Shown one piece after another: positions 19,981-49,526 of a stretch of 57,365 bases of DNA. The DNA is from Christensenellaceae bacterium (GTDB taxonomy: Bacteria > Bacillota > Clostridia > Christensenellales > Borkfalkiaceae). The notes beneath the pieces were generated by a model. It was not told the origin of the DNA. It worked only from the letters and a program-made list of their open reading frames with translations, and did no database searches. The stretch spans positions 1 to 57,365 of the forward strand of contig JAZONZ010000018.1 of the NCBI GenBank assembly GCA_045654765.1, given 5' to 3'. Positions within the stretch are counted from its first letter, which is position 1; every line of letters begins with the position of its first letter. A program made the translations under genes and the position numbers.

Positions 19981-19990
19981 TAGGTGAATT

Positions 19991-21725: not shown

Positions 21726-21732
21726 GTAACAA

Positions 21733-25562: not shown

Positions 25563-26477
25563 TTATTTATTTTCGTTTTCTATATGATATTTAATTTGGT
25601 CTTCTATCCAGTAAGTAAATTTTGTATTTGTTAAAGTTTTTTCGTAAGGCTTGATATTTTTATAATGAACTGCGCCGTCTATTTGACTTTCCCAAATATC
25701 AGCAAAGCAAAAATCGTAGTCTTTATTATTTGCTTTGCTTAAATAGGCTATCGCATCGGCTTTTACAATTTTAATTTTGTCTTTATAAGGAAAATAAGGT
25801 AAAATATATTTCTCAAACAAGTCGATAATAGTAGGCTCAATTTCTACGATAGTTATGCTTTTTACTTGTTCTTTTAGCGATACCATAAAAGGATAATAAC
25901 CAAGACCTAAGCCTAAAACTAAAACTTTGCCGTAGGCTAAATCAATTTGCTGTTGCATAGAATAAATCTCTGATGGACAAATACTCATCCAAGGCACGTC
26001 GCCTTCGTAAATGGTTGGAAAAGTTACGTCTTCAGTAAAAAAACCTAATTTTGGAACGACTAACGGCTTAGTGAAATCGGGATAGTCGTATTGAAAAAAT
26101 TCCCCCTTTGCATAGTCGCAATTAGTTAAAAGTAAATTGCCTATTTTTACCGTTGGAACTTTTTTAATTGCTTGTAAATACTTATCGTCTAAAAACCATT
26201 GTTTAGTAAATTTCTTTGCATTTTTAAATATTAAAGAAAGGTATTCTTTATCAGCGTATTGTTTAACAAAAGTTGCATTTAAAAAATTATTTATAATGAA
26301 AAATTTTTCAAAATCGCCGTCATAAAATCCATCGTCACTAAGTGCTAAAAGCATTTCGGAAGTGTATAATTTTTTAGCATTTTCTAAATCTTTATTAGTG
26401 TAGGGAAAATACGGCACGTCATTTATTATTATGCTAGTTATATGTTGTTGTAATTGTAAACTTTTTTCTTTATTCAT
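25563..26477 (-). CDS. spermidine-synthase-like class I methyltransferase-fold protein
   Basis: VLVLGLGLGYYPF, ITIVEIEP and FCFADIWE resemble the aminopropyltransferase/MTase core. The N-terminal ~170 aa are unassigned. Confidence 0.5.
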   Translation of the reverse strand: MNKEKSLQLQQHITSIIINDVPYFPYTNKDLENAKKLYTSEMLLALSDDGFYDGDFEKFFIINNFLNATFVKQYADKEYLSLIFKNAKKFTKQWFLDDKYLQAIKKVPTVKIGNLLLTNCDYAKGEFFQYDYPDFTKPLVVPKLGFFTEDVTFPTIYEGDVPWMSICPSEIYSMQQQIDLAYGKVLVLGLGLGYYPFMVSLKEQVKSITIVEIEPTIIDLFEKYILPYFPYKDKIKIVKADAIAYLSKANNKDYDFCFADIWESQIDGAVHYKNIKPYEKTLTNTKFTYWIEDQIKYHIENENK

Positions 26478-26906: not shown

Positions 26907-27554
26907 TTATTTTTGTAATTCAAAATCGCTTTTTGGATGTTTACATAAAGGACAAGTCCAACTATCAGGTAATTCTTCAAAAGGAATTTTTTCTACGTTA
27001 TCATCATAGGTATAACCGCAAATTTTACACACCCAAACTTTTTTAGCGTTTTGCTTACCCGTTTCAACTTTTTTAGGTTTTGGCTTTATATTAGATAAAT
27101 AATATTCGTAAGTTAACGATGGCTCGTCACTTAAAACCTTACTTTCAGTAACGTTTGCTATAATCATAACGTGAGTGCCTAAATCAATATATTTATCTAC
27201 GTTTGCTGAAATAAAAGCGTTTGTTCCTTTTGTAATATAAGGCAAACCATTTTCGCTATAACTATGCTCAAAATTAGATAGTTTATCTACCTTTTTACCA
27301 CTTTGGAAACCAAAATTTTGAAATACGTCAAAAGTAGAACTTGTAGAAAGCATAGAAACGTTAAACTTGCCTGATTGTATTATGATATCAAGCGTGTAAT
27401 TATTTTTGTTAATGCAAATGCTTATTTTTAGTGGCGAAGACGTTACTTGAATTGCCGTATTTATAATGCAACCATTTTCTTTTCCACCCTTTGAAGTTAA
27501 AACAAAAAGTCCGTATGAAAATTTGTATAATGCTTTATTATCTATATTACTCAT
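26907..27554 (-). CDS. flavin reductase domain fused to a C-terminal rubredoxin (high-molecular-weight rubredoxin, Hrb-like)
   Basis: Flavin-reductase-like core (YGLFVLTS...NGCIINT) plus [12 protein letters not shown]...[14 protein letters not shown] placed the start at the ATG at 27554, since the track start at 27578 is a TTG. Confidence 0.85.
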
Positions 27555-27560
27555 AATTGT

Positions 27561-27569
27561 ATTATAACA
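27561..27569 (-). promoter_or_regulatory. extended -10 box (TGTTATAAT) 6 nt upstream of the hrb-like ATG; likely leaderless transcript
   Basis: The minus strand reads tgttataat-acaatt-ATG. There is no SD sequence between the box and the ATG. Confidence 0.5.
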
Positions 27570-27586
27570 TAAAGACAATTAAATTT

Positions 27587-35962: not shown

Positions 35963-35971
35963 TGTTATAAT
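35963..35971 (+). promoter_or_regulatory. extended -10 element TGtTATAAT, best promoter candidate for the mdh-hdr-frd operon
   Basis: The sequence tgtgttataat has only a poor -35. An imperfect hairpin (36029-36059) lies in the predicted leader. Confidence 0.4.
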
Positions 35972-36077
35972 GTCTTTACGTAAAAAATAATGGCGTTATA
36001 TTTATAAAATAAATATCGTTTTTTAATGGCGTAAATTAAAGGGGGACCCCTTTTTACGCTATATGTTTTAAAAAAGT

Positions 36078-36095
36078 TTGTTAAATTTTTAACAA
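36078..36095. promoter_or_regulatory. Rex (NADH/NAD+-sensing repressor) operator
   Basis: TTGTTAAATTTTTAACAA is a perfect match to the clostridial Rex consensus TTGTTAANNNNTTAACAA. It lies 27 nt upstream of the mdh-like ATG. Confidence 0.65.
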
Positions 36096-36121
36096 TCATT
36101 AAAAGTTGAGGAGGTAACGCT

Positions 36122-37066
36122 ATGAGAAAGGTTACAATTATTGGGGCTGGCGCAGTAGGCTCGGCAATAGGGTATTTATTAGTTGCTGAAGAGGTGGCGT
36201 CAGAAATAGTTTTTATTGACGTTAATAAAGACAAGGCGGCAGGTGAGGCTATGGATATTTATCAAGCAACGCCGTTTTTAAGTCCTACAAAAGTTATTGA
36301 GGGTAGTTATGAAGACGCTGAAGGTTCGGATATTGTAATAATTACGTCAGGTGTTGCAAGAAAGCCAGGTCAAACAAGAATCGACCTTGCTAAGACAAAC
36401 GTTAATATTATAAATTCAATTTCAAAAGATATTGCAAAAGTATGTCCTAACGCAATATATATAATCGTTGCTAACCCTGTTGACGTTTTAACTTATGCGT
36501 TTATCAAGGCATCAGGAATTCCAGCAAATAAAGTTATAGGCTCAGGCACGAGTTTAGATACTGCAAGGTTAAAAGCCAAACTTGCTGAAATATTTAAAAT
36601 TAACTCAATGCAAATTGACGCTTTTTGTTTTGGAGAGCACGGCGACACGCAATTTATTCCTTGGTCGCTTGCAAGAATAGGTGGCGTTCCTATTGACGAA
36701 TATCACAAGGCTATGACGACTAAGTATACCGAATTAGTTGAGTTTAATAAAGACGAAGTGTACGATTACGTTAAAAAATCGGGTGGATATATTATACAAA
36801 GAAAAGGGGCAACGTATAACGGCGTTGCATCTGCGGTGACGTATATTTGCAAATCTATTTTTAGCGGAGCGGATACCATACTTTGTATATCTTCGTTATT
36901 AAACGGAGAATACGGGGTAAAAGACGTGTGTTTAAGTACGCTTGCAGTAGTTTCAAGCGAAGGCATAAAAACTACGTTAACGCCAGCGCTTACTGAAAGT
37001 GAAGGCGAAAAGTTTAAAGCAAGTGCAATTGCTATGAGAAAAGTAATTGAAGAAATTAACGTTTAA
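36122..37066 (+). CDS. mdh: LDH-fold L-2-hydroxyacid dehydrogenase, predicted malate dehydrogenase
   Basis: KVTIIGAGAVGSA Rossmann N-terminus and the LDH-type active-site motif GEHGDT. The substrate-discriminating loop reads GVARKPGQTRIDL, with Arg at the position equivalent to Gln102 of LDH. The gene lies next to fumC. Confidence 0.7.
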   Translation: MRKVTIIGAGAVGSAIGYLLVAEEVASEIVFIDVNKDKAAGEAMDIYQATPFLSPTKVIEGSYEDAEGSDIVIITSGVARKPGQTRIDLAKTNVNIINSISKDIAKVCPNAIYIIVANPVDVLTYAFIKASGIPANKVIGSGTSLDTARLKAKLAEIFKINSMQIDAFCFGEHGDTQFIPWSLARIGGVPIDEYHKAMTTKYTELVEFNKDEVYDYVKKSGGYIIQRKGATYNGVASAVTYICKSIFSGADTILCISSLLNGEYGVKDVCLSTLAVVSSEGIKTTLTPALTESEGEKFKASAIAMRKVIEEINV

Positions 37067-37077
37067 CGAGGTGAAAT

Positions 37078-38442
37078 ATGGAATATCGTATAGAAAAAGA
37101 TACAATGGGCGAAATGAAAGTGCCTGCCGATAGATATTGGGGTGCGCAAACTCAAAGAAGTTATCAAAACTTTAAAATAGGCGAGGAAGTAATGCCTCGT
37201 GAAATAACTCACGCATTTGGTATTTTGAAAAAGGCTGCGGCAAGAGCAAACTTTAAACTTGGCAAATTAAGTGAAGAAAAGTTAAATGCCATAGAACAAG
37301 CGTGTGATGAAGTTATAAGTGGTAAATTAAACGGTCATTTTCCTCTCGTTGTTTGGCAAACGGGCTCGGGCACTCAATCAAATATGAACGCAAACGAAGT
37401 TATTGCTAATAGGGGCAACGAAATAGTTGGTAAAAAGTTGTTACACCCAAACGATGATATAAATAAAAGTCAATCAAGTAACGATACTTTTCCAACGGCA
37501 ATGCATATTAGTGCCGTTATTGGTATTGAAGACAATCTTTTCCCTGCGATTGATACTTTAATCAATACTTTTACAAGGCTTGAAGAAGAAAATAAAGGCG
37601 TTGTTAAAAGTGGTAGAACGCATTTGCAAGATGCTGTTCCTATCAGTTTTTCGCAAGAAATTAGCGGTTGGAAAAATATGCTTGAAAAGTCTAAAACAAT
37701 GATTGAAAAATCATTAAGTGGACTTAAACAACTTGCTCTTGGCGGTACTGCGGTAGGTACGGGACTTAATGCTCCAAAAGGTTTTTCGGAGGGCGTTGCA
37801 AAAGAAGTTAGCATTTTAACGGGCAAAGAATTTGTAACTGCTGATAATAAATTCCACGCATTAACTTCAAAAGACGAACTTGTTTTTGCACACGGTGCTT
37901 TAAAGGCGCTTGCTTGTGATTTAATGAAAATAGCAAACGATATTAGGTGGTTGTCTTCTGGTCCAAGATGCGGTTTGGGTGAAATTTTTATTCCTGAAAA
38001 CGAGCCAGGCTCATCAATTATGCCAGGCAAAGTAAACCCAACTCAATGCGAGGCTATGACGATGGTATCAGTTCAAGTAATAGCAAATGACGTTGCCGTT
38101 TCTATGGGTGCTTCACAAGGCAACTTTGAACTCAACGTATTTATGCCGGTAATTATTTATAATTTCTTACAATCGGTTAAATTACTTGCTGACGGCATTA
38201 CTTCGTTTAATAATAATTGTGTTCAAGGCATTAAGGCAAATAAAGAAAAAATGAAACACAATTTACATAATTCGCTTATGCTTGTTACAGCGCTTAACCC
38301 ATATATCGGTTATGAAAATGCTGCAAAAACGGCTAAAAAAGCACATAAGGAAAATATTAGTTTAAAAGAGGCGTGTGTATCACTTGGCTTCTTAACGGAA
38401 GAAGAATTTGATAAAGTGTTCCACCCAGAAGAAATGATTTAA
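37078..38442 (+). CDS. fumC: class II fumarate hydratase
   Basis: [15 protein letters not shown] signature. [10 protein letters not shown] and SSNDTFPT blocks are also present. Confidence 0.95.
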
Positions 38443-38453
38443 AGGGGCAAGAT

Positions 38454-39236
38454 ATGAAATTTAGTTATTATCCTGGCTGTACGTTAAAAACGAAAGCCAA
38501 AGACCTTGATTTATATGGTAGAAAATCTCTTGAAATTTTAGGCGTAGAATTTGAAGAGGTTAAAGAGTGGCAATGTTGCGGGGCTGTATATCCTATGGCT
38601 CGTGATGAAATTGCTACAAAACTTTCAGCGGTAAGAACGTTAGTTTCAGCAAAAGAAGAAGATGCAAAACTAATAACTTTATGCTCGGCATGTCATCACG
38701 TATTAAAAAGAGTTAACGATGATATGAAAAATGATGAAAATATCAATTTAAAAGTAAACAACTATTTAAATTTAGATGAAAAATATAATGGTGAAACTGA
38801 CGTTATACACTATCTTGAACTTTTAAGAGATTACGTTGGATTTGACAAAATTAAAGAAAAAGTAACGGACGCTTTTAAAGGTAAAAAAATAGGCGCATAC
38901 TACGGCTGTTTATTATTAAGACCATCGTCAGTATTAGCCTTTGATAACCCTGAAAATCCTAAAATTATTGAAGATTTTATTAAGGCTATCGGTGGAACGG
39001 CTGTAATTTATCCGTTTAGAAACGAGTGTTGCGGTGCGTACGTTTCGCCATCAAACAAGGCTTTAACTATTGATAGGTGCAATAAGGTTATGGATTCTGC
39101 AAGTCAAAGCGGTGCGGAAATTTTAGTAACGGCGTGTCCGTTATGTAAATATAACCTTACTGAAAATAGCAACAATAAAGTAGAAGTTAAATACTTTACT
39201 GAACTTTTATTCGAGGCACTTGGAGGTAAATTATAA
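38454..39236 (+). CDS. hdrB: heterodisulfide reductase subunit B-like protein (two CCG domains)
   Basis: YYPGC...WQCCGA...CSAC and YYGC...NECCGA...CPLC are the two CCG cysteine motifs. Confidence 0.85.
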   Translation: MKFSYYPGCTLKTKAKDLDLYGRKSLEILGVEFEEVKEWQCCGAVYPMARDEIATKLSAVRTLVSAKEEDAKLITLCSACHHVLKRVNDDMKNDENINLKVNNYLNLDEKYNGETDVIHYLELLRDYVGFDKIKEKVTDAFKGKKIGAYYGCLLLRPSSVLAFDNPENPKIIEDFIKAIGGTAVIYPFRNECCGAYVSPSNKALTIDRCNKVMDSASQSGAEILVTACPLCKYNLTENSNNKVEVKYFTELLFEALGGKL

Positions 39237-39239
39237 TTT

Positions 39240-39626
39240 ATGGATAAGTTAGAACAAGTAAAGTTAATAAAAGAAAGAAGTGGAACTGATACTAAAAAAT
39301 GTATGAAATGTGGCAAATGTAGTGGTCGTTGTCCCGTATATAAAGATATGGATATTAAACCGCATCAATTTGTTTCAATGATAGAAAAAGGCGAAATTGA
39401 TAAATTGTTAAACTCTAAATCGCTTTACGTATGTTTAAGTTGTTTTGCTTGCTTAGAAAGATGCCCAAGAGGTGTTGCTCCCGTTCAAGTTATCGAGGCT
39501 GTTAGACAAGAGGCTATTAGAACGGCTGGCGGAAATAAATTAAACAGTGAAGACGTTCCTCAAATAGTTGATGAGAAAATCCCTCAACAATTATTAGTTA
39601 GTATGTTTAGAAAATTAAACAAATAG
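39240..39626 (+). CDS. hdrC: heterodisulfide reductase subunit C-like 2x[4Fe-4S] protein
   Basis: CMKCGKCSGRCP and CLSCFACLERCP. Confidence 0.8.
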   Translation: MDKLEQVKLIKERSGTDTKKCMKCGKCSGRCPVYKDMDIKPHQFVSMIEKGEIDKLLNSKSLYVCLSCFACLERCPRGVAPVQVIEAVRQEAIRTAGGNKLNSEDVPQIVDEKIPQQLLVSMFRKLNK

Positions 39627-39638
39627 GGAAGTGATAAA

Positions 39639-41630
39639 ATGCAAAGAATAGGTGTTTTTGTTTGTTGGTGCGGAAGTAATATCGCATCAACGATAGACGT
39701 AGAAAAAGTTAGTGAAATTTTAAAATTAGAGCCTAACGTCGTAGTTAGTGAAAACTATCAATATATGTGTTCGGAAAACGGCCAAGCGTTAATTAGAAAT
39801 GCTATTAAAGAGCATAATTTAACGGGTGTCGTAGTTTGTTCGTGTTCACCAAGAATGCACGAAGCAACTTTTAGAAAAACTTGTGAACTTGCCGGACTTA
39901 ATCAACATATGGTTGAAATTGCTAATATTCGTGAACAATGTTCTTGGATACATAAAGATAAAGACGAAGCAACTGAAAAAGCAATAATTTTAGGAAGAAG
40001 TGCAATAGCCAAATTAAAATTAAACACACCGCTTACTTCGGGAGAAAGCCCAGTTGTTAAACGTGCGCTCGTTATAGGTGGCGGTATTGCAGGTATACAA
40101 TCAGCGCTTGATATTGCCGAGGCGGGTTTTGAAGTTGATATAGTTGAAAAATCGCCAACTATCGGCGGGAATATGGCAAAACTTGATAAAACCTTTCCAA
40201 CGTTAGACTGCGCGGCGTGTATTTTAACGCCAAAAATGGTTGACTGCGCTCAAAACGAAAAAATTGATATTTTAACTTATAGTGAAATTGAAGACGTAAA
40301 AGGTTTCGTAGGTAATTTTAAAGTAAAAATTAAAAAGAAAGCAAGATTCGTTGACGAGAAAAAGTGTACGGGCTGTGGCGAGTGTATGCAAAAATGTCCT
40401 TCTAAAAAGGGACTTAACGAATTTAATATGGGCTTAAACACAAGACCTGCTATTTATATTCCTTTTGCACAAGCAATTCCAAACGTTGCGGTTATTGATG
40501 CTAACGAATGTATCAAACTTAAAACGGGTAAATGTGGTTTATGTCAATTAAAATGTCAAGTTAAGGCTATTGACTATACGCAAAAAGACGAATATATTGA
40601 AAGAGAATACGGTGCAATAGTAGTTGCAACGGGTTACAAGCCTATTTCATTAGAAAACTTTAACGAATATGGTTATTCAACGTACAAAGACGTTGTTACT
40701 TCGTTAGAGTTTGAAAGAATTATGAACGCGGCAGGACCAACGGGCGGACACTTAGTTTGTCCATCAAATAATAAAGAGCCAAAAGAAATAGTATTTATTC
40801 AATGCGTAGGCTCAAGAGACGTTTCGGGTTGCGGTAAACCATATTGTAGTAAAATTTGTTGTATGTATACGGCAAAACACGCTATGCTCGTTAGAGAAAA
40901 ATATCCAAATTGTAACGTAACCGTATTTTACATAGACGTAAGAACTCCTGGCAAAAACTACGATGAGTTTTTTAGAAGGGCAGTTGAACAATATGACGTT
41001 GAATATATTAAAGGTATGGTTGGTAAAGTTTACGATAAAGACGGCAGACTCGTTGTTCAAGGCGCTGATATTTTAAACGGCGTACAAATTGTAAAAGAGT
41101 GTGATATGGTCGTACTTGCCGCCGCTATCGAGCCAGATCCATCAGTTAGAAAGATAGCAACCTTATTAACGGCAAGTATTGATACTAATAATTTCTTAAC
41201 GGAAGCACACGCAAAACTTCGTCCTGTTGAAAGTCCAACGGCGGGAATTTTCTTGTCGGGCGTATGTCAAGGACCAAAAGATATTCCTGAAACGGTTTCT
41301 CAAGCAAGTGCTTGCGCATCAAAAGTTATTGCGCTTTTAGTTAAAGATAAATTAAAAACAAACCCTTGCGTAGCAAGTGCTGACGATACGTTATGTACGG
41401 GCTGTTCAGTTTGTGAAAACGTTTGTCCATACGGCGCTATTACGTACGTGGATAAAGAATTTAGACTTGGTGGCGGTAGAACGGAAGTTAGAAGAGTTGC
41501 TACAGTTAATCCAGCAGTATGTCAAGGCTGTGGTGCGTGTACGGTAACTTGTCCTTCAGGCGCTATGGATTTAAAAGGCTTTTCAACAAAGCAAATAATG
41601 GCGGAGGTTGATGCAATATGCAAGAAGTAA
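39639..41630 (+). CDS. hdrA: heterodisulfide reductase subunit A-like FAD/FeS protein
   Basis: N-terminal Cys domain (VFVCWCGSNI...CSCSPR), FAD motif VIGGGIAGIQSALDIAEAG, an inserted ferredoxin domain (CTGCGECMQKCP, CGLCQLKC) and a C-terminal ferredoxin domain (CTGCSVCENVCP, CQGCGACTVTCP). Confidence 0.88.
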   Translation: MQRIGVFVCWCGSNIASTIDVEKVSEILKLEPNVVVSENYQYMCSENGQALIRNAIKEHNLTGVVVCSCSPRMHEATFRKTCELAGLNQHMVEIANIREQCSWIHKDKDEATEKAIILGRSAIAKLKLNTPLTSGESPVVKRALVIGGGIAGIQSALDIAEAGFEVDIVEKSPTIGGNMAKLDKTFPTLDCAACILTPKMVDCAQNEKIDILTYSEIEDVKGFVGNFKVKIKKKARFVDEKKCTGCGECMQKCPSKKGLNEFNMGLNTRPAIYIPFAQAIPNVAVIDANECIKLKTGKCGLCQLKCQVKAIDYTQKDEYIEREYGAIVVATGYKPISLENFNEYGYSTYKDVVTSLEFERIMNAAGPTGGHLVCPSNNKEPKEIVFIQCVGSRDVSGCGKPYCSKICCMYTAKHAMLVREKYPNCNVTVFYIDVRTPGKNYDEFFRRAVEQYDVEYIKGMVGKVYDKDGRLVVQGADILNGVQIVKECDMVVLAAAIEPDPSVRKIATLLTASIDTNNFLTEAHAKLRPVESPTAGIFLSGVCQGPKDIPETVSQASACASKVIALLVKDKLKTNPCVASADDTLCTGCSVCENVCPYGAITYVDKEFRLGGGRTEVRRVATVNPAVCQGCGACTVTCPSGAMDLKGFSTKQIMAEVDAICKK

Positions 41631-42055
41631 AAGAATATAAACCTTTAATAGTAGCATTTTGTTGTAACTGGTGTAGTTATGCGGGGGCTGACCTTGCCGG
41701 CTCGTCAAGACTTTCATATCCTGCGAACGTAAAAATTATAAGAGTACCTTGTTCGTGTAGAGTAAATCCAACCTTTATTTTAAAGGCTTTTCAAAAGGGT
41801 GCTGACGGTGTAATTATTTGCGGTTGTCACCCAGGCGATTGCCATTATACTTCAGGTAATTATTTTGCAAGAAGAAGAATGTCATTACTATTTAATATGC
41901 TTGATTTTTTAGGCATTGAAAGAGAAAGAACGAGAGTTGAGTGGGTTTCCGCTGCCGAAGGCGTTAAGTTTTCTAAGGTTATGAACGATTTTGCTAAAAC
42001 TATCAATGAACTTGGCGAAAACAAGAAGTTGGAGGATTTAAGATGCAAGAATTAG
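41618..42055 (+). CDS. mvhD: MvhD/FlpD-family (methyl-viologen-reducing hydrogenase delta-like) protein; FlxD equivalent
   Basis: LIVAFCCNWCSYAGADLAG...RVPCSCRV...ICGCHPGDCHY. It overlaps hdrA by 13 nt. Confidence 0.85.
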   Translation: MQEVKEYKPLIVAFCCNWCSYAGADLAGSSRLSYPANVKIIRVPCSCRVNPTFILKAFQKGADGVIICGCHPGDCHYTSGNYFARRRMSLLFNMLDFLGIERERTRVEWVSAAEGVKFSKVMNDFAKTINELGENKKLEDLRCKN

Positions 42056-43014
42056 AAAAATTGATTATTAAAAGGGCAAAAGAACTTTTAAACGATGGTA
42101 GTGTAAATAGAGTGCTTGGCTGGAAGAGGGGCGAATTTTGTCACGATATATCGCCAGCAGTATTTTATAATGAAGAACAACTTAAAGATTTTACTTACAA
42201 TTGTTTTTGCGGTGCTAATTTATCTAAATATTTAATTAGTGAAAGTAAACTCGAAGGAAAAGTGCTTGTATTTTTAAAGCCTTGTGATACGTATAGTTTT
42301 AATCAACTTGTAAAAGAGCATAGAATAAACAAAGATAACGTGTACGTTATAGGCATAGAGTGTCAAGGCAAAGTAGACTTTGAAAAATGCCAACAAAAAG
42401 GTTTTGACTTTTTAGATAGCGCTATCGAAACGATTGATAAAATTACTTTAACTAACGGAGATAAAACGCAAACTTTTGATAAAAACCAATTAAAACTTTC
42501 AAAATGTCAAGTTTGCAATAAAGAATTAGTTGCAGGCGATGAAAAAATCGTATTACACGAAAAAGTAAAAGCAGTAGACGATAGATTTGATGACGTAAAA
42601 AAATTAGAGGCTATGACGAGTGAAGAAAGATTTGCTTTTTGGAAGGAACAACTTTCTAAATGTATTCGTTGTAACGCTTGTAGAAACGTTTGTCCTGCTT
42701 GTACTTGCACAAAATGCGTATTCGATAATGACGAGTCAACGATTTCTTCAAAAGCAAACAGCGATAGTTTTGAAGAAAAATTATTCCATATAATAAGGTC
42801 TTTCCACGTGGCTGGTCGTTGTACTGATTGTGGCGAGTGTTCAAGAGTATGTCCTCAAAACATACCCCTACATTTGTTAAACCGTAAATATATTATGGAT
42901 ATTGATAGATTGTACGGCGAATATCAAGCGGGTGCTGACGATTGTTCAAAAGGTCCGTTAACAAGTTACGATAAAGAAGATTTAGACCCAAACGATGCGG
43001 GGGGTAAAAAATAA
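42043..43014 (+). CDS. 4Fe-4S dicluster protein (FlxC-like)
   Basis: CIRCNACRNVCPACTC and CTDCGECSRVCPQ. It overlaps mvhD by 13 nt. Confidence 0.6.
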   Translation: MQELEKLIIKRAKELLNDGSVNRVLGWKRGEFCHDISPAVFYNEEQLKDFTYNCFCGANLSKYLISESKLEGKVLVFLKPCDTYSFNQLVKEHRINKDNVYVIGIECQGKVDFEKCQQKGFDFLDSAIETIDKITLTNGDKTQTFDKNQLKLSKCQVCNKELVAGDEKIVLHEKVKAVDDRFDDVKKLEAMTSEERFAFWKEQLSKCIRCNACRNVCPACTCTKCVFDNDESTISSKANSDSFEEKLFHIIRSFHVAGRCTDCGECSRVCPQNIPLHLLNRKYIMDIDRLYGEYQAGADDCSKGPLTSYDKEDLDPNDAGGKK

Positions 43015-44039
43015 TGAAGAAAATTGAGTATTCTAAAATAAACGCATTATATAATGAAATATCTTCTAAAATGCCACTTTATCTTCCTATTAAAAAGGCT
43101 GATAGTTTAAACTTTTTAAAATATGAAGACGGAGCACAAGTAGATATTGAGTCTTTACAAACGGTAAAATCGGCAAAAGATTTATTTTTCCCTCAATCAG
43201 AAGATATAATGTCTTTTAAAACACAAGGTAAAACTATTGAAATTAAAGACGAAAGAGTAAAAAGTGATGAATTTGCTATTTTTGGCGTTAGGGCTTGCGA
43301 TAATAAGAGTTTTGAAGTTTTAGATAGAGTGTTTTTGGCTGAGCCCGTTGACACTATGTATAAAACTAAAAGAGATAATGCAATTATTATGACGCTTGCT
43401 TGTAATAATCCTCAAAAATCATGTTTTTGTAAGGTGTTTGATATTGACGCTTCTTCGCCAAAGGGCGATATAGAAATGTATTTAGATAATGAATATCTTT
43501 ATTTAGATGCTAAAACTAAAAGGGGCGAAGACTTATTAAATAGTTTAACTTGTTTGCAAGATGGTGGCGAAGAAAAAGTTGCAAGCATAAAAGAGCAAAT
43601 TGTTAAAAAGATTGATAATCTTCCTTATTCTAATTTAAAATTAGATGCTTTCAAAGGCGAAAATCTAATGACGCTTTTTGATAGAAAAGAGTGGGATGAA
43701 TTATCTAAGGCTTGTTTAGGTTGCGGAACTTGTACGTTCGTATGTCCAACTTGTCAATGTTTTGATATTAAGGATTTTACTACTAACGAAGGCGTTAAAC
43801 GTTTTAGGTGTTGGGATAGTTGTATGTATTCCGACTTTACTAAAATGGCTGCGGAAAATCCAAGAAAAAATCAAATGCAAAGATTTAGGCAACGCTTTAT
43901 GCATAAACTCGTATATTATCCTTCAAATAACGACGGATTATATAGTTGCGTAGGTTGTGGAAGATGCGTTAAAAAATGTCCGCAAGCGTTAAACATTGTA
44001 AAGGTTATTAAAAAGTTAGGGGGTAGCGAAAATGAATAA
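43014..44039 (+). CDS. 4Fe-4S dicluster protein (AsrA/sulfhydrogenase-beta/FlxB-like)
   Basis: CLGCGTCTFVCPTCQCFD and CVGCGRCVKKCPQ. ATGA overlap with the upstream gene. Confidence 0.65.
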   Translation: MKKIEYSKINALYNEISSKMPLYLPIKKADSLNFLKYEDGAQVDIESLQTVKSAKDLFFPQSEDIMSFKTQGKTIEIKDERVKSDEFAIFGVRACDNKSFEVLDRVFLAEPVDTMYKTKRDNAIIMTLACNNPQKSCFCKVFDIDASSPKGDIEMYLDNEYLYLDAKTKRGEDLLNSLTCLQDGGEEKVASIKEQIVKKIDNLPYSNLKLDAFKGENLMTLFDRKEWDELSKACLGCGTCTFVCPTCQCFDIKDFTTNEGVKRFRCWDSCMYSDFTKMAAENPRKNQMQRFRQRFMHKLVYYPSNNDGLYSCVGCGRCVKKCPQALNIVKVIKKLGGSENE

Positions 44040-44859
44040 TGATGCTTTAATTCCTATGATAGGCGTTATAACTGATATTAGAAAAGATACTCCCGACGTT
44101 AAAACTTTTAGAGTTGTTTCACTTGACGGCAAAAAACTTTTTGAGCATATGCCAGGTCAATGTGCTATGATTTCAATTCCAGGTATAGGCGAGGCTATGT
44201 TTTCAATAACTTCTTCACCTACTAACAAGGAATTTATGGAATTTTCTATTAAAAAATGCGGTTGCGTTACAAGTTGGTTACACTCTTGCGAAGTAGGTCA
44301 ACAAATAACGGTAAGAGGTCCTTACGGAAACGGTTTCCCCGTTGAAGATGCGTTTAAAGGTAAAAACTTATTGTTTATTGCGGGCGGTATCGGTTTAGCA
44401 CCACTTCGTTCGGTAATAAACTACGTTAGAGATAATAGAGAAAACTATAAAACGGTTGATATTGTTTACGGTGCAAGGTCTAAAGACGATCTCGTTGATA
44501 TTCAAGAAATTGAAAACGAGTGGAAGAACGAAGAAAATATCAACGTTTATTTAACTATTGATAGAGAGCAAGAAGGTTGGAACGGCCACGTAGGATTTGT
44601 TCCAAATTACGTAAAAGAAGTAAATATTCCAACGGATAGAACGGCGGTACTTTGCGGTCCACCTATTATGATAAAGTTTACGTTGCAAGCACTTTTAGAA
44701 CTTGGCTTTGATAAAAAACAAGTATATACGACTTTAGAGTTTAGAATGAAGTGCGGTATAGGTAAATGCGGTCGCTGTAACGTGGGCGATAAGTACATTT
44801 GTAAAGACGGTCCCGTATTTAGAATGGACCAACTTGAAGAATTACCTTCTGAATATTAA
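44032..44859 (+). CDS. FAD/NAD(P)-binding oxidoreductase with a C-terminal [2Fe-2S] (PyrK/AsrB/FlxA-like)
   Basis: Ferredoxin-reductase-type fold (RGPYGNGF, LLFIAGGIGLAPLRS) and the cluster motif CGIGKCGRCNV. 8-nt overlap with the upstream gene. Confidence 0.8.
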   Translation: MNNDALIPMIGVITDIRKDTPDVKTFRVVSLDGKKLFEHMPGQCAMISIPGIGEAMFSITSSPTNKEFMEFSIKKCGCVTSWLHSCEVGQQITVRGPYGNGFPVEDAFKGKNLLFIAGGIGLAPLRSVINYVRDNRENYKTVDIVYGARSKDDLVDIQEIENEWKNEENINVYLTIDREQEGWNGHVGFVPNYVKEVNIPTDRTAVLCGPPIMIKFTLQALLELGFDKKQVYTTLEFRMKCGIGKCGRCNVGDKYICKDGPVFRMDQLEELPSEY

Positions 44860-44878
44860 TTAAATGGAGAAAAACAGT

Positions 44879-45553
44879 ATGGAAAAAATGGTTAACGTTT
44901 ATTTTTTCGGTAAAAAATATAGTGTTCCAAGCAGTCTTACTATTATGAAGGCTATGGAATATGCTGGCTATCAACTTATTCGTGGTTGTGGTTGTCGTAA
45001 TGGTTTTTGCGGTGCTTGTTCTACTTTATATAGAATTAAGGGCAAAACCGAACTTAAAACTTGTCTTGCTTGTCAACAACAAGTAGAAGAAGGTATGTAC
45101 GTTGCTACACTTCCTTTCTTCCCACTCGTAAAACAAGTTTACGATATTCAAAAGGTAAAACCAACGGAACAAATTATGATGCAATTATATCCTGAAATTT
45201 ATAGTTGTATAGGTTGTAATGCGTGCACTAAGGCTTGTCCTCAAAGTTTAAAAACTATGCAATATATTGCATATGCTCAAAGGGGCGAATATGAAAAGTG
45301 TGCAGAAGAGTCTTTTGACTGCGTAATGTGCGGTATTTGTTCATCTCGTTGTCCTGCTGGTATTTCACACCCACAAGTTGCTATTTTGGCTCGTAGATTA
45401 TACGGCAAATACATAGCACCTGAGTGCAAACACCTTATTGATAGAGTTGAAGAAATAAATAGTGGTGCTTTTGATAATGATATGAAAACTATTATGACTA
45501 CGCCACTTGAAAAACAAAAAGAACTTTACAATACTCGTAAAATTGAGGACTAA
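44879..45553 (+). CDS. frdB: succinate dehydrogenase/fumarate reductase iron-sulfur subunit-like protein
   Basis: SdhB-type [2Fe-2S] pattern CGCRNGFCGACS...CLAC, then CIGCNACTKACPQ and CVMCGICSSRCPAG. I placed the start at the ATG 8 nt after GGAGA. The track start is 44864. Confidence 0.75.
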   Translation: MEKMVNVYFFGKKYSVPSSLTIMKAMEYAGYQLIRGCGCRNGFCGACSTLYRIKGKTELKTCLACQQQVEEGMYVATLPFFPLVKQVYDIQKVKPTEQIMMQLYPEIYSCIGCNACTKACPQSLKTMQYIAYAQRGEYEKCAEESFDCVMCGICSSRCPAGISHPQVAILARRLYGKYIAPECKHLIDRVEEINSGAFDNDMKTIMTTPLEKQKELYNTRKIED

Positions 45554-45564
45554 GGAGGTAGATT

Positions 45565-47169
45565 ATGTACGTTTATACTGATGAACAACTTAAATCTATG
45601 AAGTTGGTTGAAAAAACAAGACAAGATAGATTAAATAATCTTCATAAAAGAATGACTGCTGAAGAAAAAACTGCAGTTTTACAACAATTTCACCCAGACT
45701 ATATTGAAGGGGCGTATGAAACTCTTAAAGTAGGTCCTAATAAAGGGGATAAAGTTTTACACGAACTTGCATCTTTATTACAAGGTAATCCGCGTAGCGA
45801 AGAAAAGTGCGCTGATTTATCTAATCCTGATTATGACGTTGACGTGTTAGTTATAGGTGGTGGCGGTGCTGGCTCATCTGCCGCTATAACTGCTCATAAC
45901 AACGGCGCTAACGTAATGATAGTTACAAAACTTAGAATAGGTGACGCTAACACTATGATGGCTGAGGGTGGTATTCAAGCGGCTGATAAACCTAACGACA
46001 GCCCTGCAATACATTATCTTGACGCTTTCGGTGGCGGACACTTTGCTGCAAAGCCTGAATTATTAGAAAAACTTGTTTGTGATGCTCCCGACTCTATTCG
46101 TTGGCTTTCTGACCTTGGCGTTATGTTTGATAAAGATGCCGATGGAAATATGATAACGACTCACGGTGGCGGTACTTCAAGAAAGAGAATGCACGCTTGT
46201 AAAGACTATTCGGGTGCTGAAATTATGAGAACTTTAAGAGATGAAGTTTTAAATAGGGGTATTCCTGTAGTAGACTTCACTTCTGCTATCGAAATTATTT
46301 TAGATGATGAAGGTAAGGCAAGTGGCGCTGTATTAAAAAATATGGAAACGGGCGAAATTTTAGTTGCTAAGGCTAAAACGGTAGTTATTGCAACGGGCGG
46401 TGCTGGTAGACTTCACTATCAAGGATTCCCAACGAGTAACCACTATGGTGCAACTGCTGACGGCTTAGTTTTAGCATATCGTGCGGGCGCTAAACTTTTA
46501 TATGCCGATACTTTACAATATCACCCAACGGGCGTTGCTGAACCAACACAAATTTTTGGTGCGTTAGTTACTGAAAAAGTACGTTCACTTGGCGCTCAAC
46601 TCGTTAACAAAGACGGCGAGCCTTTCGTATATTCTTTGGAAACGAGAGACGTTACGGCATCTACTATTATTAGAGAGTGTAACGGTAGAGATAACGGTAT
46701 CAAAACTACTGACGGCGTTGGCGTATGGCTCGATACTCCTATGATTGAACAAATTCACGGAGAAGGCACAATTGAAAAGAGAATTCCAGCAATGATGCGT
46801 ATGTTTGGTAAATATGGCATTGATATTAGAAAAGAGCCTATTTTAGTATATCCAACGTTGCACTATCAAAATGGTGGTATAGATATAAGCGCTAACGGTA
46901 TGACGAGCGTTGAAAACTTATTCGTTGCAGGCGAGGCTGTTGGTGGTATTCACGGAAGAAACAGACTTATGGGTAACTCACTTTTAGATATTATCGTATT
47001 TGGTAGAAATGCTGGTAAAAATGCGAGTGAAAAGTGTAAAAACGTAAAAGTTGGTAAACTTTCGTTAAGTCATATAGACAAATTTGAAAAAGAACTCAAA
47101 GATGCTGGCATAGATACGGGCATTGTTTCACCTAAACTATTACCAGATTATAAAAGAAAGGATATGTAA
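45565..47169 (+). CDS. frdA: fumarate reductase/succinate dehydrogenase flavoprotein-family subunit (soluble, TfrA/FrdA-like)
   Basis: VLVIGGGGAGSSAAITA FAD motif, plus LQYHPTG, LHYQNGGI and AGEAVGGIHGRNRLMGNSLLD. The segment aligned with the covalent-FAD His of SdhA reads ANTMMAEGG, with no His. Confidence 0.8.
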   Translation: MYVYTDEQLKSMKLVEKTRQDRLNNLHKRMTAEEKTAVLQQFHPDYIEGAYETLKVGPNKGDKVLHELASLLQGNPRSEEKCADLSNPDYDVDVLVIGGGGAGSSAAITAHNNGANVMIVTKLRIGDANTMMAEGGIQAADKPNDSPAIHYLDAFGGGHFAAKPELLEKLVCDAPDSIRWLSDLGVMFDKDADGNMITTHGGGTSRKRMHACKDYSGAEIMRTLRDEVLNRGIPVVDFTSAIEIILDDEGKASGAVLKNMETGEILVAKAKTVVIATGGAGRLHYQGFPTSNHYGATADGLVLAYRAGAKLLYADTLQYHPTGVAEPTQIFGALVTEKVRSLGAQLVNKDGEPFVYSLETRDVTASTIIRECNGRDNGIKTTDGVGVWLDTPMIEQIHGEGTIEKRIPAMMRMFGKYGIDIRKEPILVYPTLHYQNGGIDISANGMTSVENLFVAGEAVGGIHGRNRLMGNSLLDIIVFGRNAGKNASEKCKNVKVGKLSLSHIDKFEKELKDAGIDTGIVSPKLLPDYKRKDM

Positions 47170-47184
47170 CAAGAAGGTGAAATT

Positions 47185-48378
47185 ATGGAATTATTTGGTG
47201 GAGCATATTCAATAACGGGTGTAACGTTTTTTCTATTCACTCTATTTGCTATCACGTTCATAGGCTATTTAGTAGGCGGAATAAAAATTAAAGGCGTTTC
47301 TCTTGGAACGGCAGGAGTATTTTTAGTTTCTCTTGCGTTTGGTATGCTTTTCTATGGTGACGTAGAAAATACGTATAAAAGCGCTGAGGCAGGGTATAAG
47401 GTCGTTCAAAATATAGGACTATTACTCTTTATAACTTCAGTTGGATTTATTGCAGGACCTAACTTTTTTAGTGGTTTAAAGAAAAATGCAACAAGTTACG
47501 TTTTGCTTGGCTTTATTATTATTTTAACGGCAGGCTTAGTAACGGGTGGTATTTTGGTTGTTGATAAAAACGTAAATTCAGCAATGGCAACAGGCTTGCT
47601 TGCCGGTGCGTTAACGTCTACACCAGCCTATTCTGCTGCAATTGATTCATTACCATATGAATTTCAAGCGGCTTGTTCGGCTGGCTATGGTATAGCGTAC
47701 ATATTCGGTGTGGTGGGCGTTGTTTTATTCGTTCAACTTATGCCTAAATTATTAAAGGCTGATATGAACAAAGAAAGAGAAAGTCTTAGAGCCATTAGCA
47801 TTGATAATAAAGAAAGAAGAAAAGATTTTTTACAAATTGACGACTACGGCATTTTTGCTTTTGCTTTAGCAGTAGTATTAGGTTTAGTTGTTGGTATGAT
47901 AAAAATTCCGCTTGGTAAAGGTTCGTTTTCACTTGGAACAACGGGCGGTCCGCTTTTAGTTGCTTTAATTATGGGGCATTTTTACAATATTAAAAAAGTA
48001 AAACTTATGCCAGATATAAAACTTTTAAAAGTGTTTAGAGAGTTTGGTTTAATGCTATTTTTAATAGGCGCAGGCGTTCCTGGTGGTGCTAAATTCTTAC
48101 AACATTTAAATGCTATATACTTCTTGTATGGCGCAGTTATAACTATACTTCCTATGGTTGTTGGTTTTATATTTGCAAAGTTCGTTTTAAAATTGCCGTT
48201 ATTAAACAATTTAGGCTCTATCACGGGCGGTATGACTTCAACTCCAGCGCTCGGCACTCTAATAAGTGTTGCCGAAACTGATGACGTTGCTAACGCTTAT
48301 GCCGCAACTTATCCTATTGCACTTGTTTCAGTAGTGGTATTATCACAACTTTTAATTTTAATATTCCCGGTTGTGTAA
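47185..48378 (+). CDS. AAE (aspartate:alanine exchanger/YidE-YbjL-SucE) family transporter, short form
   Basis: Two homologous 5-6-TM halves. The N-terminus FIGYLVGGIKIKGVSLGTAGVFLVSLAFG is typical of the family. There are no central TrkA-C domains. Confidence 0.7.
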   Translation: MELFGGAYSITGVTFFLFTLFAITFIGYLVGGIKIKGVSLGTAGVFLVSLAFGMLFYGDVENTYKSAEAGYKVVQNIGLLLFITSVGFIAGPNFFSGLKKNATSYVLLGFIIILTAGLVTGGILVVDKNVNSAMATGLLAGALTSTPAYSAAIDSLPYEFQAACSAGYGIAYIFGVVGVVLFVQLMPKLLKADMNKERESLRAISIDNKERRKDFLQIDDYGIFAFALAVVLGLVVGMIKIPLGKGSFSLGTTGGPLLVALIMGHFYNIKKVKLMPDIKLLKVFREFGLMLFLIGAGVPGGAKFLQHLNAIYFLYGAVITILPMVVGFIFAKFVLKLPLLNNLGSITGGMTSTPALGTLISVAETDDVANAYAATYPIALVSVVVLSQLLILIFPVV

Positions 48379-48397: not shown

Positions 48398-48545
48398 GAG
48401 TAAACAACGAAAGTTGTTTGAAAGTAGGGGAAGTAAGGTGTAATTCCTTCGCAACGGTCATTACGGTAAAGCCCGATAACCTACCAAAAAGCGTTCAAGG
48501 TAATAAATTTCGGACAAAGGAAATATAAGCCACTAAACTATAAGT
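48398..48545 (+). promoter_or_regulatory. probable cobalamin riboswitch
   Basis: The core aggggaagtaaggtgtaattccttcgcaacgg matches the conserved GGGAAG..GGTG.AATTCC...GC..GG block. A later gccactaa segment is also present. I could not find a clear canonical B12 box. The downstream genes are of a type often B12-regulated. Confidence 0.55.
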
Positions 48546-48547
48546 TT

Positions 48548-48578
48548 ACGCCCGTATTATCTTGATACGGGCGTTTTT
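48548..48578 (+). terminator. intrinsic terminator (riboswitch expression platform)
   Basis: acgcccgtat-tatcttg-atacgggcgt followed by tttt, immediately before the DUF4430-like gene. Confidence 0.8.
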
Positions 48579-48595
48579 ACGTGGCAAAATATTAT

Positions 48596-49006
48596 ATGAA
48601 AAAATTTTTTGTAGCACTTTTAGTAGTTTTACTACTATTTATGGTTGGTTGCCAAAGAGAAATGGCAAAAGTGGACACTTTAGAAGAAAAAGTAGTTATC
48701 ACGATAACGGGTGATATTGATGAAGATATATCATTATTTGATTATATGCTTCAAATGCAAGAAAATGAAGAAATAGAATTTACTTATTCAAATGGTCAAT
48801 ATGGCGCTTATATTTTATCAATAAACAATATTACCGCTAAACCTAATGAGTTTTGGGCGTTATATACTGATGATGAAGAGTTTTCGTCAACGGAGTGGGG
48901 ACAAGTTGAGTATAAAGAAAAAATTTACGCATCAAGTTCGCTTGGTTGTGAAACTTTAAACGTTAAAAATGGAAACACTTATATTTGGGTTTTAACGAAG
49001 GTGTAA
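48596..49006 (+). CDS. DUF4430-like lipoprotein (transcobalamin-beta-domain-like, putative corrinoid binder)
   Basis: MKKFFVALLVVLLLFMVGC lipobox. Small secreted domain. The family assignment is from memory. I chose the ATG at 48596 over the GTG at 48581. Confidence 0.55.
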   Translation: MKKFFVALLVVLLLFMVGCQREMAKVDTLEEKVVITITGDIDEDISLFDYMLQMQENEEIEFTYSNGQYGAYILSINNITAKPNEFWALYTDDEEFSSTEWGQVEYKEKIYASSSLGCETLNVKNGNTYIWVLTKV

Positions 49007-49007
49007 A

Positions 49008-49526
49008 ATGAAAAGAACGAAAGAAATTGCAATAATAGGTATGTATACCGCCCTTTTAATAGGCGCTCAACTCGTATTATTTGCAGTTAGTGGAATAGAA
49101 GTGGTAACGATATTATTTTGCTGTTTTTGTTATCGCTTTGGGGTAAAAAAAGGCGTGTTATTAGCAATAGCCTTTTCTCTATTAAGGTGCATAGTATTTG
49201 GGTTTATTGTAAACGTAGTTATTTTATATTTAATATATTATCCGCTTTTAGCGATTGTGTTTGGTGTGGTGGGTAAAAAATTAACAAAAGAAATAACTAT
49301 AAAAAAAGTTATTATAGTTAGCGTTATTGCATTTATAATGACTATACTTTTTACTTTGATAGACGATATATTAACGCCGTTAATATATTTGTATAATATA
49401 AAAATGTTTAAGGCGTATTTTGTCGCTTCACTATTAACTTTAATTCCGCACGCAATAACTACGCTTATAATTTTTCTATTGCTATTTTACCCTATCGTTA
49501 AATTACTTTATAAAATAAAAATATAA
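49008..49526 (+). CDS. ECF-transporter S-component-like membrane protein
   Basis: 172 aa with ~5-6 TM helices. The N-terminus KEIAIIGMYTALLIGAQL is typical of S components. It is adjacent to the DUF4430 gene, behind the riboswitch. Confidence 0.55.
   Translation: MKRTKEIAIIGMYTALLIGAQLVLFAVSGIEVVTILFCCFCYRFGVKKGVLLAIAFSLLRCIVFGFIVNVVILYLIYYPLLAIVFGVVGKKLTKEITIKKVIIVSVIAFIMTILFTLIDDILTPLIYLYNIKMFKAYFVASLLTLIPHAITTLIIFLLLFYPIVKLLYKIKI

Follow-up and report, generated by a model that had tools for sequence, protein, structure and literature searches.

Gene content and layout of the operon

We analyzed a 57-kb stretch of DNA, contig JAZONZ010000018.1 of the Christensenellaceae assembly GCA_045654765.1 (hereafter the window; coordinates are window positions unless another locus is named). 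At 36122–48378 it carries twelve co-directional open reading frames (ORFs) on the + strand, which encode a malate dehydrogenase (MDH), a fumarase, a seven-gene set related to heterodisulfide reductase (Hdr) and Flx proteins, a two-gene fumarate reductase (FrdBA), and a transporter. The genes are, in order:

36122..37066, + strand: mdh, NAD-dependent malate dehydrogenase of the lactate dehydrogenase (LDH) family; Ldh_1_N and Ldh_1_C, Arg80 at the LDH Gln102 position
37078..38442, + strand: fumC, class II fumarate hydratase; TIGR00979 at 747 bits (cut-off 665), Lyase_1 and FumaraseC_C
38454..39236, + strand: hdrB-like, two complete CCG domains (Pfam CCG, twice); two non-cubane [4Fe-4S] sites predicted
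39240..39626, + strand: hdrC-like 2x[4Fe-4S] protein; Fer4_8 and Fer4_17, HdrC model TIGR03290 at 69 bits
39639..41630, + strand: hdrA, full-length flavin adenine dinucleotide (FAD)/Fe-S flavoprotein of the electron-bifurcating type; HdrA2 model at 795 bits
41618..42055, + strand: mvhD (flxD), [2Fe-2S] adaptor; FlpD at 190 bits over model positions 1–123 of 123
42043..43014, + strand: flxC-like Fe-S protein, 323 amino acids with 20 Cys; Fer4_8/9/17 and a weak HydB match
43014..44039, + strand: flxB-like Fe-S protein of the AsrA/HydB/ShyB family; Fer4_22 at 108, ShyB at 162, HydB at 150 and AsrA at 137 bits
44032..44859, + strand: flxA-like NAD(P)H-oxidizing flavoprotein of the AsrB/HydG/PyrK type with FAD, an NAD(P)-binding domain and [2Fe-2S]; FAD_binding_6, NAD_binding_1 and DHODB_Fe-S_bind, AsrB at 216 and HydG at 205 bits
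44864..45553, + strand: frdB, small Fe-S subunit of 229 amino acids; SdhB-type [2Fe-2S] motif and two CxxCxxCxxxCP [4Fe-4S] motifs
45565..47169, + strand: frdA, fumarate reductase flavoprotein of 534 amino acids; FAD_binding_2 over residues 93–473 only, no Succ_DH_flav_C
47185..48378, + strand: AAE-family transporter gene; Asp-Al_Ex twice (211 bits), no TrkA_C domains, about ten hydrophobic segments

An earlier note on this DNA had read the block as the genes of a soluble, electron-bifurcating fumarate reductase. Its gene set and coordinates were recovered exactly (12/12 ORFs), and its domain assignments were borne out module by module by Pfam/NCBIfam profile annotation. A correction concerns position 43014, where the flxC-like and flxB-like genes meet in TAATG (a 1-nt stop/start overlap) and not in ATGA. 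The hdrA/mvhD and mvhD/flxC-like junctions overlap by 13 nt each and the flxB-like/flxA-like junction by 8 nt (44032–44039), and the remaining junctions are gaps of 3–15 nt. Public gene calls for a 99%-identical strain start frdB at 44879 rather than at 44864, i.e., 15 nt later (224 instead of 229 amino acids), which would widen the flxA/frdB gap from 4 to 19 nt. Internal promoters or terminators splitting the block were not found above chance level in a consensus scan, with 54 promoter-like matches compared to 52.5 ± 7.5 in shuffled sequence and 12 terminator-like matches compared to 9.0 ± 3.4.

In a hydropathy scan, none of the ten redox proteins contained a membrane segment and the transporter alone was hydrophobic, which agrees with the earlier description of the reductase as anchorless. 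Because the gaps of at most 15 nt leave no room, the operon also contains no extra ORF for an anchor. The Fur-family gene upstream and two ORFs downstream are not conserved in related loci, and the limits of the unit were therefore set at mdh and the AAE transporter gene. The block is rather likely to be one operon for the reductive branch from oxaloacetate through malate and fumarate to succinate and its export.

The Hdr-Flx module

HdrB aligns over residues 1–235 to the HdrB proteins of solved Mvh-Hdr complexes, and the cysteines of its CCG motifs are all kept (10/10). It scored 135 bits with the NCBIfam model SdhE (the CCG subunit of type E/MFR enzymes) and 131 bits with HdrB, both below cut-off. 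HdrA residues 3–660 align at 682 bits to residues 5–649 of 654 in chain A of 5ODC, the crystallized bifurcating HdrA. Since this alignment runs from end to end, HdrA keeps the N-terminal Fe-S domain, the thioredoxin reductase-like FAD domain, the inserted ferredoxin domain, and the C-terminal ferredoxin domain. The flxC-like and flxB-like products are distant paralogues (22% identity over the Fe-S region), and the labels FlxB and FlxC follow gene position only. By their domain content, the seven genes are a FlxABCD-HdrABC set in the order hdrBCA-flxDCBA.

The FrdB and FrdA subunits

FrdB matches the N-terminus of TfrB (39 bits) and the Fer2_4/Fer2_3 families. The FrdB of Wolinella succinogenes matches its residues 42–92 and RnfC its residues 76–167, and the C-terminal half resembles di-cluster domains of the RnfC/HdrC type. 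Because both further motifs are CxxCxxCxxxCP, FrdB lacks a [3Fe-4S] site. A protein from a representative library (P0122, 727 amino acids) is a natural fusion of FrdB (residues 1–220) and FrdA (230–727), and shares 35% identity with FrdB over the first 220 residues (E = 1e-54). Such a fusion speaks for FrdB and FrdA as parts of a single enzyme. An assignment of FrdB as a NuoG/HydA-type Fer2_4 protein was rejected in view of this fusion, the SdhB-type Cx4CGxCx(n)C motif, and the N-terminal matches to TfrB and W. succinogenes FrdB.

FrdA carries a conserved N-terminal extension of 90 amino acids with dozens of invariant residues. Its best curated model was TfrA (338 bits, cut-off 718), which aligned over TfrA positions 6–425 of 546 only. 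The NadB and SdhA/FrdA models scored ~275 bits each, and APS/PAPS reductase gave a remote match of 38 bits. Profile hidden Markov model and PDB scores alone fail to separate FrdA from NadB, so a residue-level alignment was needed. There, the catalytic motifs HPTG, TE..R, HY, and GxHGxNR of FrdA align with those of fumarate reductase FrdA and are invariant in the relatives. The proton-donor Arg361 (LETRDV) was assigned by eye, and the HMMER gaps differ in that loop. Asn129 aligns with His44 of Escherichia coli FrdA, the covalent-FAD residue; given this Asn, the FAD of the window protein is by alignment non-covalent. The invariant His200 aligns with Glu121 of NadB, which binds the substrate amino group in NadB structures. 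With this Glu-to-His replacement and with TfrA scoring above NadB and far above APS reductase, FrdA does not group with L-aspartate oxidase or APS reductase, a possibility that the earlier note had raised against itself.

The AlphaFold model of FrdA was of moderate quality (pLDDT 66, pTM 0.72, shallow alignment). Foldseek returned SdhA/FrdA first, with NadB at an equal TM-score of 0.58 and little on the N-terminal extension. At this low resolution, the predicted fold is SdhA/FrdA-like.

Malate dehydrogenase, fumarase, and transporter

The mdh product lies above the NCBIfam L-LDH cut-offs, NCBIfam/Prokaryotic Genome Annotation Pipeline (PGAP) rules would name it L-lactate dehydrogenase, and among solved structures it comes closest to bacterial L-LDHs (262 bits). 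Replacement of LDH Gln102 by Arg is the classic switch from lactate to malate specificity. The window protein reads GVARKPGQTR where the Lacticaseibacillus casei LDH reads GAPQKPGETR (Q102 to R), and Arg is kept at this position in 41/41 evaluable mdh orthologues 5′ of fumC, at overall identities of 37%–66%. The reading of the first gene as an LDH-fold malate dehydrogenase, made in the earlier note, is therefore justified. The likely substrate of the protein is betrayed by the Gln102 position only. A lactate-linked Hdr system, which the LDH scores of this gene had brought up, was rejected on the conserved Arg and the adjacent fumarase.

The AAE-family protein is the probable succinate/C4-dicarboxylate carrier. 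Its equivalent in Pseudoclostridium thermosuccinogenes has been suggested to be a succinate transporter (PMC7282089).

Conservation in gut and rumen Clostridia

FrdA has >8000 cluster-level homologues. The top 120 share 81%–100% identity, nearly all measure 533–536 amino acids, and none bears a name beyond “FAD-binding protein.” When one genome per species was scanned for FrdA, at least 600 stretches were obtained, of which 593 were confirmed; the locus counts use the best 80. These come from gut and rumen metagenome-assembled genomes (MAGs) of Clostridia, Christensenellaceae, Oscillospiraceae, Ruminococcus, and relatives. Wherever at least 7.3 kb of upstream sequence was present, the nine-gene core from hdrB to frdA had the same order and strand (56/56 loci), so the association of Hdr/Flx and Frd genes proposed earlier is kept among the relatives. 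The fumC gene lies directly 5′ of hdrB in 52 of 54 related loci and mdh lies upstream in 41 of 53, while an AAE transporter homologue follows within 2.6 kb downstream in 49 of 63. The nearest public contig (GCA_045536405.1) has a 99% identical FrdA and the same layout.

Archaeal and gammaproteobacterial relatives

An exhaustive search of 50%-identity representatives confined the N-terminal extension of FrdA to about a dozen near-full-length clusters. A clade at 57% identity to FrdA is archaeal (Bathyarchaeota, Asgardarchaeia, and one “Halobacteria archaeon” MAG), and a clade at 50% identity belongs to gammaproteobacterial sulfur oxidizers and symbionts. The loci, each in its own coordinates, are:

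L090 2617–11656, L091 4596–10652, L089 6440–11662: archaeal Hdr-FrdBA loci beside 2-oxoacid:ferredoxin oxidoreductase genes
L084 9354–12877, L086 9366–12891, L088 9350–12890: gammaproteobacterial units of frdB, frdA (with the N-terminal extension), and a NuoF-like gene (Complex1_51K and NADH_4Fe-4S)

The core hdrA-mvhD-hdrC-hdrB-frdB-frdA, 33%–59% identical, recurs in Bathyarchaeota and Asgardarchaeia. On a Bathyarchaeota contig it follows kor genes. The Asgardarchaeia contig has the order hdrA-mvhD-mvhG-mvhA-hycI-hdrC-hdrB-frdB-frdA, with the MvhGA [NiFe]-hydrogenase occupying the Flx position; its hdrA (in L090) was uncalled in the source annotation and was found by tblastn at 51% identity. 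The variable donor module comes directly after mvhD in both Clostridia and Asgard archaea. In a complete Bathyarchaeota genome, malic enzyme, class I fumarase, and frdB-frdA occur together, and an HdrB-like gene lies 7 kb off. The gene content of the Asgard and Bathyarchaeota loci suggests a H2-driven version of the machine.

The gammaproteobacterial FrdBA relatives are 47%–50% identical, and in all three contigs (3/3) they lie in an overlapping frdB-frdA-nuoF-like unit without Hdr. In the Ridgeia-symbiont type, mdh is located upstream and korAB downstream of this unit. From its composition, the unit looks like a three-subunit soluble NADH:fumarate reductase, of which we found no description in the literature. 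It is carried by the Ridgeia symbiont type, Thiorhodococcus minor, and MAGs, and is often annotated as “L-aspartate oxidase.” Because FrdBA is joined to Hdr in Clostridia and Archaea, with Flx or Mvh as the donor, and to a NuoF-like protein in Gammaproteobacteria, the FrdBA core is modular.

Regulatory elements around the operon

Two elements were read in front of mdh:

35963..35971, + strand: candidate extended −10 element TGTTATAAT, read from the sequence in the 306-nt AT-rich interval between the Fur-family gene and mdh (weak evidence)
36078..36095, + strand: Rex-type operator TTGTTAAATTTTTAACAA, a perfect 7-4-7 palindrome 26 nt 5′ of the mdh start codon

The operator matches TTGTTAANNNNTTAACAA perfectly, the Rex motif used for Clostridiaceae (PMC9600882). 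It is the sole site in the 57-kb window at ≤1 mismatch, where 0.21 would be expected. The region described in the earlier note begins at this same site. Of the 11 Rex sites at ≤1 mismatch in the 80 related loci, 9 lie within the 1% of the sequence just 5′ of mdh/fumC. Judged from this operator, the operon is probably de-repressed by Rex at rising NADH/NAD+ in the source genome. The consensus scan placed a different promoter site (9/12 matches, 35975–36002) near the candidate −10 element. A short G/C hairpin-like element AAAGGGGGACCCCTTTTT (36040–36060) lies after the candidate −10 element and before the Rex site, in what would be the 5′ leader, and was unflagged by the terminator scan.

Downstream, an adenosylcobalamin (AdoCbl-II, B12) riboswitch (RF01689, 48.9 bits, 48415–48490, + strand) begins 36 nt past the stop codon of the transporter gene, and no terminator of the fumarate reductase operon itself lies in between. 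A 12-bp GC-rich hairpin with a T-run follows the riboswitch at 48548–48574. This hairpin, the only strong one, was first taken as the operon terminator, a reading that was rejected because the riboswitch precedes it; for the same reason it is probably the expression platform of the riboswitch, and the operon would have no dedicated terminator. The next two ORFs encode a lipoprotein-like protein (48581–49006, signal ...LFMVGC) and a protein with ~6 transmembrane segments and no Pfam family (49008–49526), which probably form a B12-regulated uptake pair. This pair adjoins the operon in the 99%-identical strain only and is otherwise non-syntenic in the relatives.

Proposed mechanism and its alternatives

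We propose, with a probability of about 0.6, that the operon product is a soluble, quinone-independent complex of nine subunits (HdrABC-MvhD, FlxABC-like, and FrdBA) that would bifurcate the electrons of NAD(P)H to fumarate and ferredoxin. NAD(P)H would be oxidized at the FlxA-like flavoprotein, and the electrons would reach the HdrA flavin by way of both HydB/AsrA-like Fe-S proteins and then the [2Fe-2S] cluster of MvhD. At this flavin, the electron pair would be bifurcated. The low-potential branch would run uphill through the ferredoxin domains of HdrA to ferredoxin, and the high-potential branch would run downhill through HdrC and the CCG clusters of HdrB to FrdB, the non-covalent FAD of FrdA, and fumarate. 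The net reaction would be 2 NADH + fumarate + Fd(ox) → 2 NAD+ + succinate + Fd(red). Reduced ferredoxin could be re-oxidized, for example, by the [FeFe]-hydrogenase of the same window (506 amino acids, 12311–13831, − strand; Fe_hyd_lg_C and several Fer4 domains), which is a plausible sink. By our estimate, the overall reaction would be exergonic, at about −43 kJ per fumarate. Ferredoxin has an E0′ of about −450 mV. The corresponding values are −320 mV for NADH and +33 mV for fumarate (PMC5861303).

Observed directly are the gene content, the motifs for domains and cofactors, the conserved block, the Rex site, and the recurrence of Hdr-FrdBA in Bacteria and Archaea; we infer that the proteins assemble into one complex, that electrons travel in the order given, that HdrB passes them to FrdB directly without a thiol, and that the complex bifurcates. 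The single characterized polypeptide TfrB matches the FrdB, HdrC, and HdrB segments, and therefore offers a precedent for an electron path from a CCG site to fumarate. The bifurcating fumarate reductase of the earlier note is upheld in its modules, its conservation, and its full-length HdrA, with further support from the Rex operator, the ten CCG cysteines of HdrB, and the archaeal Hdr-FrdBA core with another donor module; bifurcation itself is a deduction, and the linkage is specific to certain clades.

Several observations weigh against this proposal. The FrdBA type can evidently work without a bifurcating module, because Gammaproteobacteria pair it with a single NuoF-like protein and no Hdr, and across the inspected loci the Hdr-FrdBA linkage appears specific to certain clades. 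The operon contains no ferredoxin gene. The intact disulfide-reductase site of HdrB hints that a thiol or disulfide could still participate. Our literature search found no biochemical characterization of any member of this enzyme type. As to regulation, a Rex site at ≤2 mismatches occurs in only 15 of 52 related loci, and Rex control is therefore limited to certain lineages; no rex gene was found among the window ORFs scanned.

The same genes could instead encode a soluble NAD(P)H:fumarate reductase that does not bifurcate, in which Flx, MvhD, and Hdr would be a mere Fe-S/flavin wire to FrdBA and no ferredoxin would be reduced. The compact gammaproteobacterial frdB-frdA-nuoF-like unit without Hdr is in line with this, as is the soluble five-subunit NADH-dependent fumarate reductase that, according to the summary in PMC13147460, was purified from Hydrogenobacter thermophilus. 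However, seven genes would be a costly substitute for one NuoF-like protein, HdrA retains all domains of bifurcating enzymes, including the inserted ferredoxin domain, and the Hdr-FrdBA core persists across domains of life although the donor module is swapped. The suppression of succinate formation by H2 in P. thermosuccinogenes also fits ferredoxin coupling (PMC7282089), and we regard a plain wire as unlikely. A thiol might also mediate the transfer. Flx-Hdr would then be a bifurcating NADH:disulfide/ferredoxin reductase, as proposed for Desulfovibrio, and a Tfr-like step would regenerate the disulfide via a DsrC-like protein or a small thiol encoded elsewhere. Both HdrB CCG motifs are intact and TfrA is the best FrdA model; the archaeal literature reads Hdr-Tfr synteny in this way (PMC9635834; PMC8163825), and Rubin-Blum et al. 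list DsrC as an alternative route (PMC6315080). Yet neither the window operon nor the 56 syntenic related loci contain a gene for a DsrC-like protein or other thiol carrier. Moreover, FrdB differs from TfrB in lacking a CCG domain. Formation and consumption of the disulfide would therefore both fall to the single HdrB, and the thiol would be superfluous. We consider such a route improbable.

The complex could also run in reverse, as a confurcating succinate dehydrogenase in which reduced ferredoxin would drive the oxidation of succinate with NAD+. In principle, enzymes with flavin-based bifurcation can work in both directions, and syntrophs meet exactly this thermodynamic problem. A non-covalent FAD disfavors succinate oxidation, however, and in FrdA the covalent-FAD His is replaced by Asn. 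In addition, the Rex operator implies induction at high NADH, and the homologous operon belongs to a succinate producer (PMC7282089), which leaves little room for this direction. That the flavoprotein is no fumarate reductase at all, but oxidizes L-aspartate or reduces some other unsaturated acid, would agree with the “L-aspartate oxidase” among the public annotations of relatives, with NadB scores nearly level with those of FrdA/SdhA, and with a fold search that cannot separate the two. Against this stand the invariant His in place of NadB Glu121, the weak match of APS/PAPS reductase, and the genes linked to frdA, which in bacteria encode fumarase, MDH, and a C4 transporter and in Bathyarchaeota encode fumarase or malic enzyme; we find another substrate hardly credible.

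The bifurcating reading can be extended, more tentatively, to the relatives. The hdrA-mvhD-hdrC-hdrB-frdB-frdA core might be an ancient cassette of Asgard archaea, Bathyarchaeota, and gut Clostridia that bifurcates to fumarate and to ferredoxin, hands electrons from the CCG site of HdrB straight to FrdB without a thiol, and takes exchangeable donors after MvhD (FlxABC for NAD(P)H, MvhAG for H2). It might provide hundreds of uncultured species of gut and rumen Clostridia with their main energy-conserving, Rex-switched route to succinate.

Relation to known systems and prior proposals

The earlier note had implied more novelty than the literature allows, as the same operon and mechanism have been proposed for P. 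thermosuccinogenes (PMC7282089) and for symbiont gene clusters (PMC6315080). The “succinate operon” of P. thermosuccinogenes comprises genes for fumarate hydratase, seven Flx-Hdr proteins, two fumarate reductase subunits, and a putative carrier for succinate (Koendjbiharie et al. 2020, BMC Microbiol, PMC7282089). NADH-driven fumarate reduction coupled to ferredoxin reduction was proposed for this species there, citing a preprint (Koendjbiharie & van Kranenburg 2019). Its operon was ~4-fold co-regulated under CO2 limitation, and succinate formation was abolished under 85% H2 (PMC7282089). Compared by the published description only, gene inventory and mechanism are the same. What the window has in addition is a leading mdh gene of LDH descent and the Rex operator, and it comes from a mesophilic gut MAG of low GC content that lies closest to a Christensenellaceae-series assembly.

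For tubeworm symbionts, a HdrABC-FlxABCD-KorABCD-TfrAB complex has been proposed (Rubin-Blum et al. 2019, mSphere, PMC6315080), a proposal repeated in PMC13147460. The idea that Flx-Hdr bifurcates NADH electrons to fumarate reductase and ferredoxin is shared with this tubeworm symbiont/Thioflavicoccus cluster. In contrast to the window operon, that cluster is embedded in genes of the reductive tricarboxylic acid cycle with 2-oxoglutarate:ferredoxin oxidoreductase (OGOR), whereas the gammaproteobacterial FrdA relatives inspected here lie in the frdB-frdA-nuoF-like unit without Hdr. Archaeal thiol:fumarate reductase has been noted as syntenic to an Hdr-like complex (PMC9635834), and a 2024 preprint lists succinate dehydrogenase/fumarate reductase among the STRING partners of Firmicute HdrA.

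All seven module types of the Desulfovibrio vulgaris FlxABCD-HdrABC (Ramos et al. 2015, as described in PMC7282089 and PMC6315080) are present and contiguous in the window. The window differs from that description in its gene order (hdrBCA-flxDCBA), in having no linked DsrC, and in the position of FrdBA directly after Flx-Hdr, which makes fumarate rather than a DsrC disulfide the likely acceptor at high potential. Compared to the methanogen MvhAGD-HdrABC complexes (5ODC, 8RVU, 7BKB), HdrA, HdrB, and MvhD align near full length with their cofactor ligands kept, and the Asgard relative even retains MvhGA beside the Hdr-FrdBA core. In contrast to these complexes, the proposed donor in the window is NAD(P)H via Flx rather than H2, and the proposed acceptor is fumarate via FrdBA rather than CoM-S-S-CoB; window HdrB and HdrC are also shorter (260 and 128 amino acids).

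With the Methanothermobacter TfrAB (Heim et al. 1998, as described in PMC6315080 and PMC8163825), the window shares TfrA as the best FrdA model, and TfrAB illustrates that a CCG site can feed a fumarate-reducing flavin. FrdA falls short of the TfrA cut-off (338 compared to 718 bits), misses ~120 C-terminal TfrA residues, and adds the N-terminal extension. The TfrB domains are split over three window genes, with the CCG domains on a separate HdrB, and coenzymes M and B (CoM/CoB) are not expected in Clostridia. Complex II enzymes (E. coli FrdABCD, the quinol:fumarate reductase (QFR) of W. succinogenes) are alike in flavoprotein fold, catalytic residues, and the SdhB-type [2Fe-2S] motif, whereas the window enzyme has no membrane anchor, covalent FAD, C-terminal flavoprotein domain, or [3Fe-4S] motif. 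Bcd-EtfAB is a functional analogue in which NADH jointly reduces ferredoxin and a C=C acceptor of high potential (PMC5861303), but the protein families are unrelated and its bifurcating flavin resides in Etf, not in HdrA.

Other features of the window

Near the [FeFe]-hydrogenase gene lie genes for a rubrerythrin (17997–18653, − strand) and a flavin reductase-rubredoxin fusion (26907–27578, − strand), both of a kind that strict anaerobes typically use against oxidative stress. A lysine riboswitch (RF00168, 92 bits, 18856–19025, + strand) precedes a dapA-dapB-meso-diaminopimelate dehydrogenase-lysA operon at 19096–23043. Five ORFs of 304–612 amino acids had no Pfam match at E ≤ 1e-6: 5548–7386 (−), 7417–8976 (−), 23206–24465 (+), 25563–26477 (−), and 15307–16284 (−).

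Biological significance

The feature is real and belongs to a kind of operon that has already been proposed; its value is corroboration and breadth, not discovery. To the published picture, this analysis contributes exact figures for conservation in gut and rumen Clostridia, an MDH of LDH descent, a Rex operator, the distinctive build of FrdA, a fusion of FrdB to FrdA, and donor modules that change across domains of life while the Hdr-FrdBA core stays constant. Annotation pipelines now call these genes “FAD-binding protein,” “L-aspartate oxidase,” and “L-lactate dehydrogenase.” Among the Clostridia of gut and rumen (Christensenellaceae, Oscillospiraceae, Ruminococcus, and relatives), at least several hundred genomes, counted at species level, carry the operon, and it bears on the balance of succinate and H2 in these ecosystems. 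If the bifurcating reading is true, fumarate would become one of the few acceptors of high potential by which flavin-based bifurcation is driven, and the HdrB CCG site could be an electron relay, beyond its role as a disulfide reductase. Anaerobes without quinones would then conserve energy from fumarate as reduced ferredoxin, for use by hydrogenase or Rnf, rather than by quinol-linked respiration.

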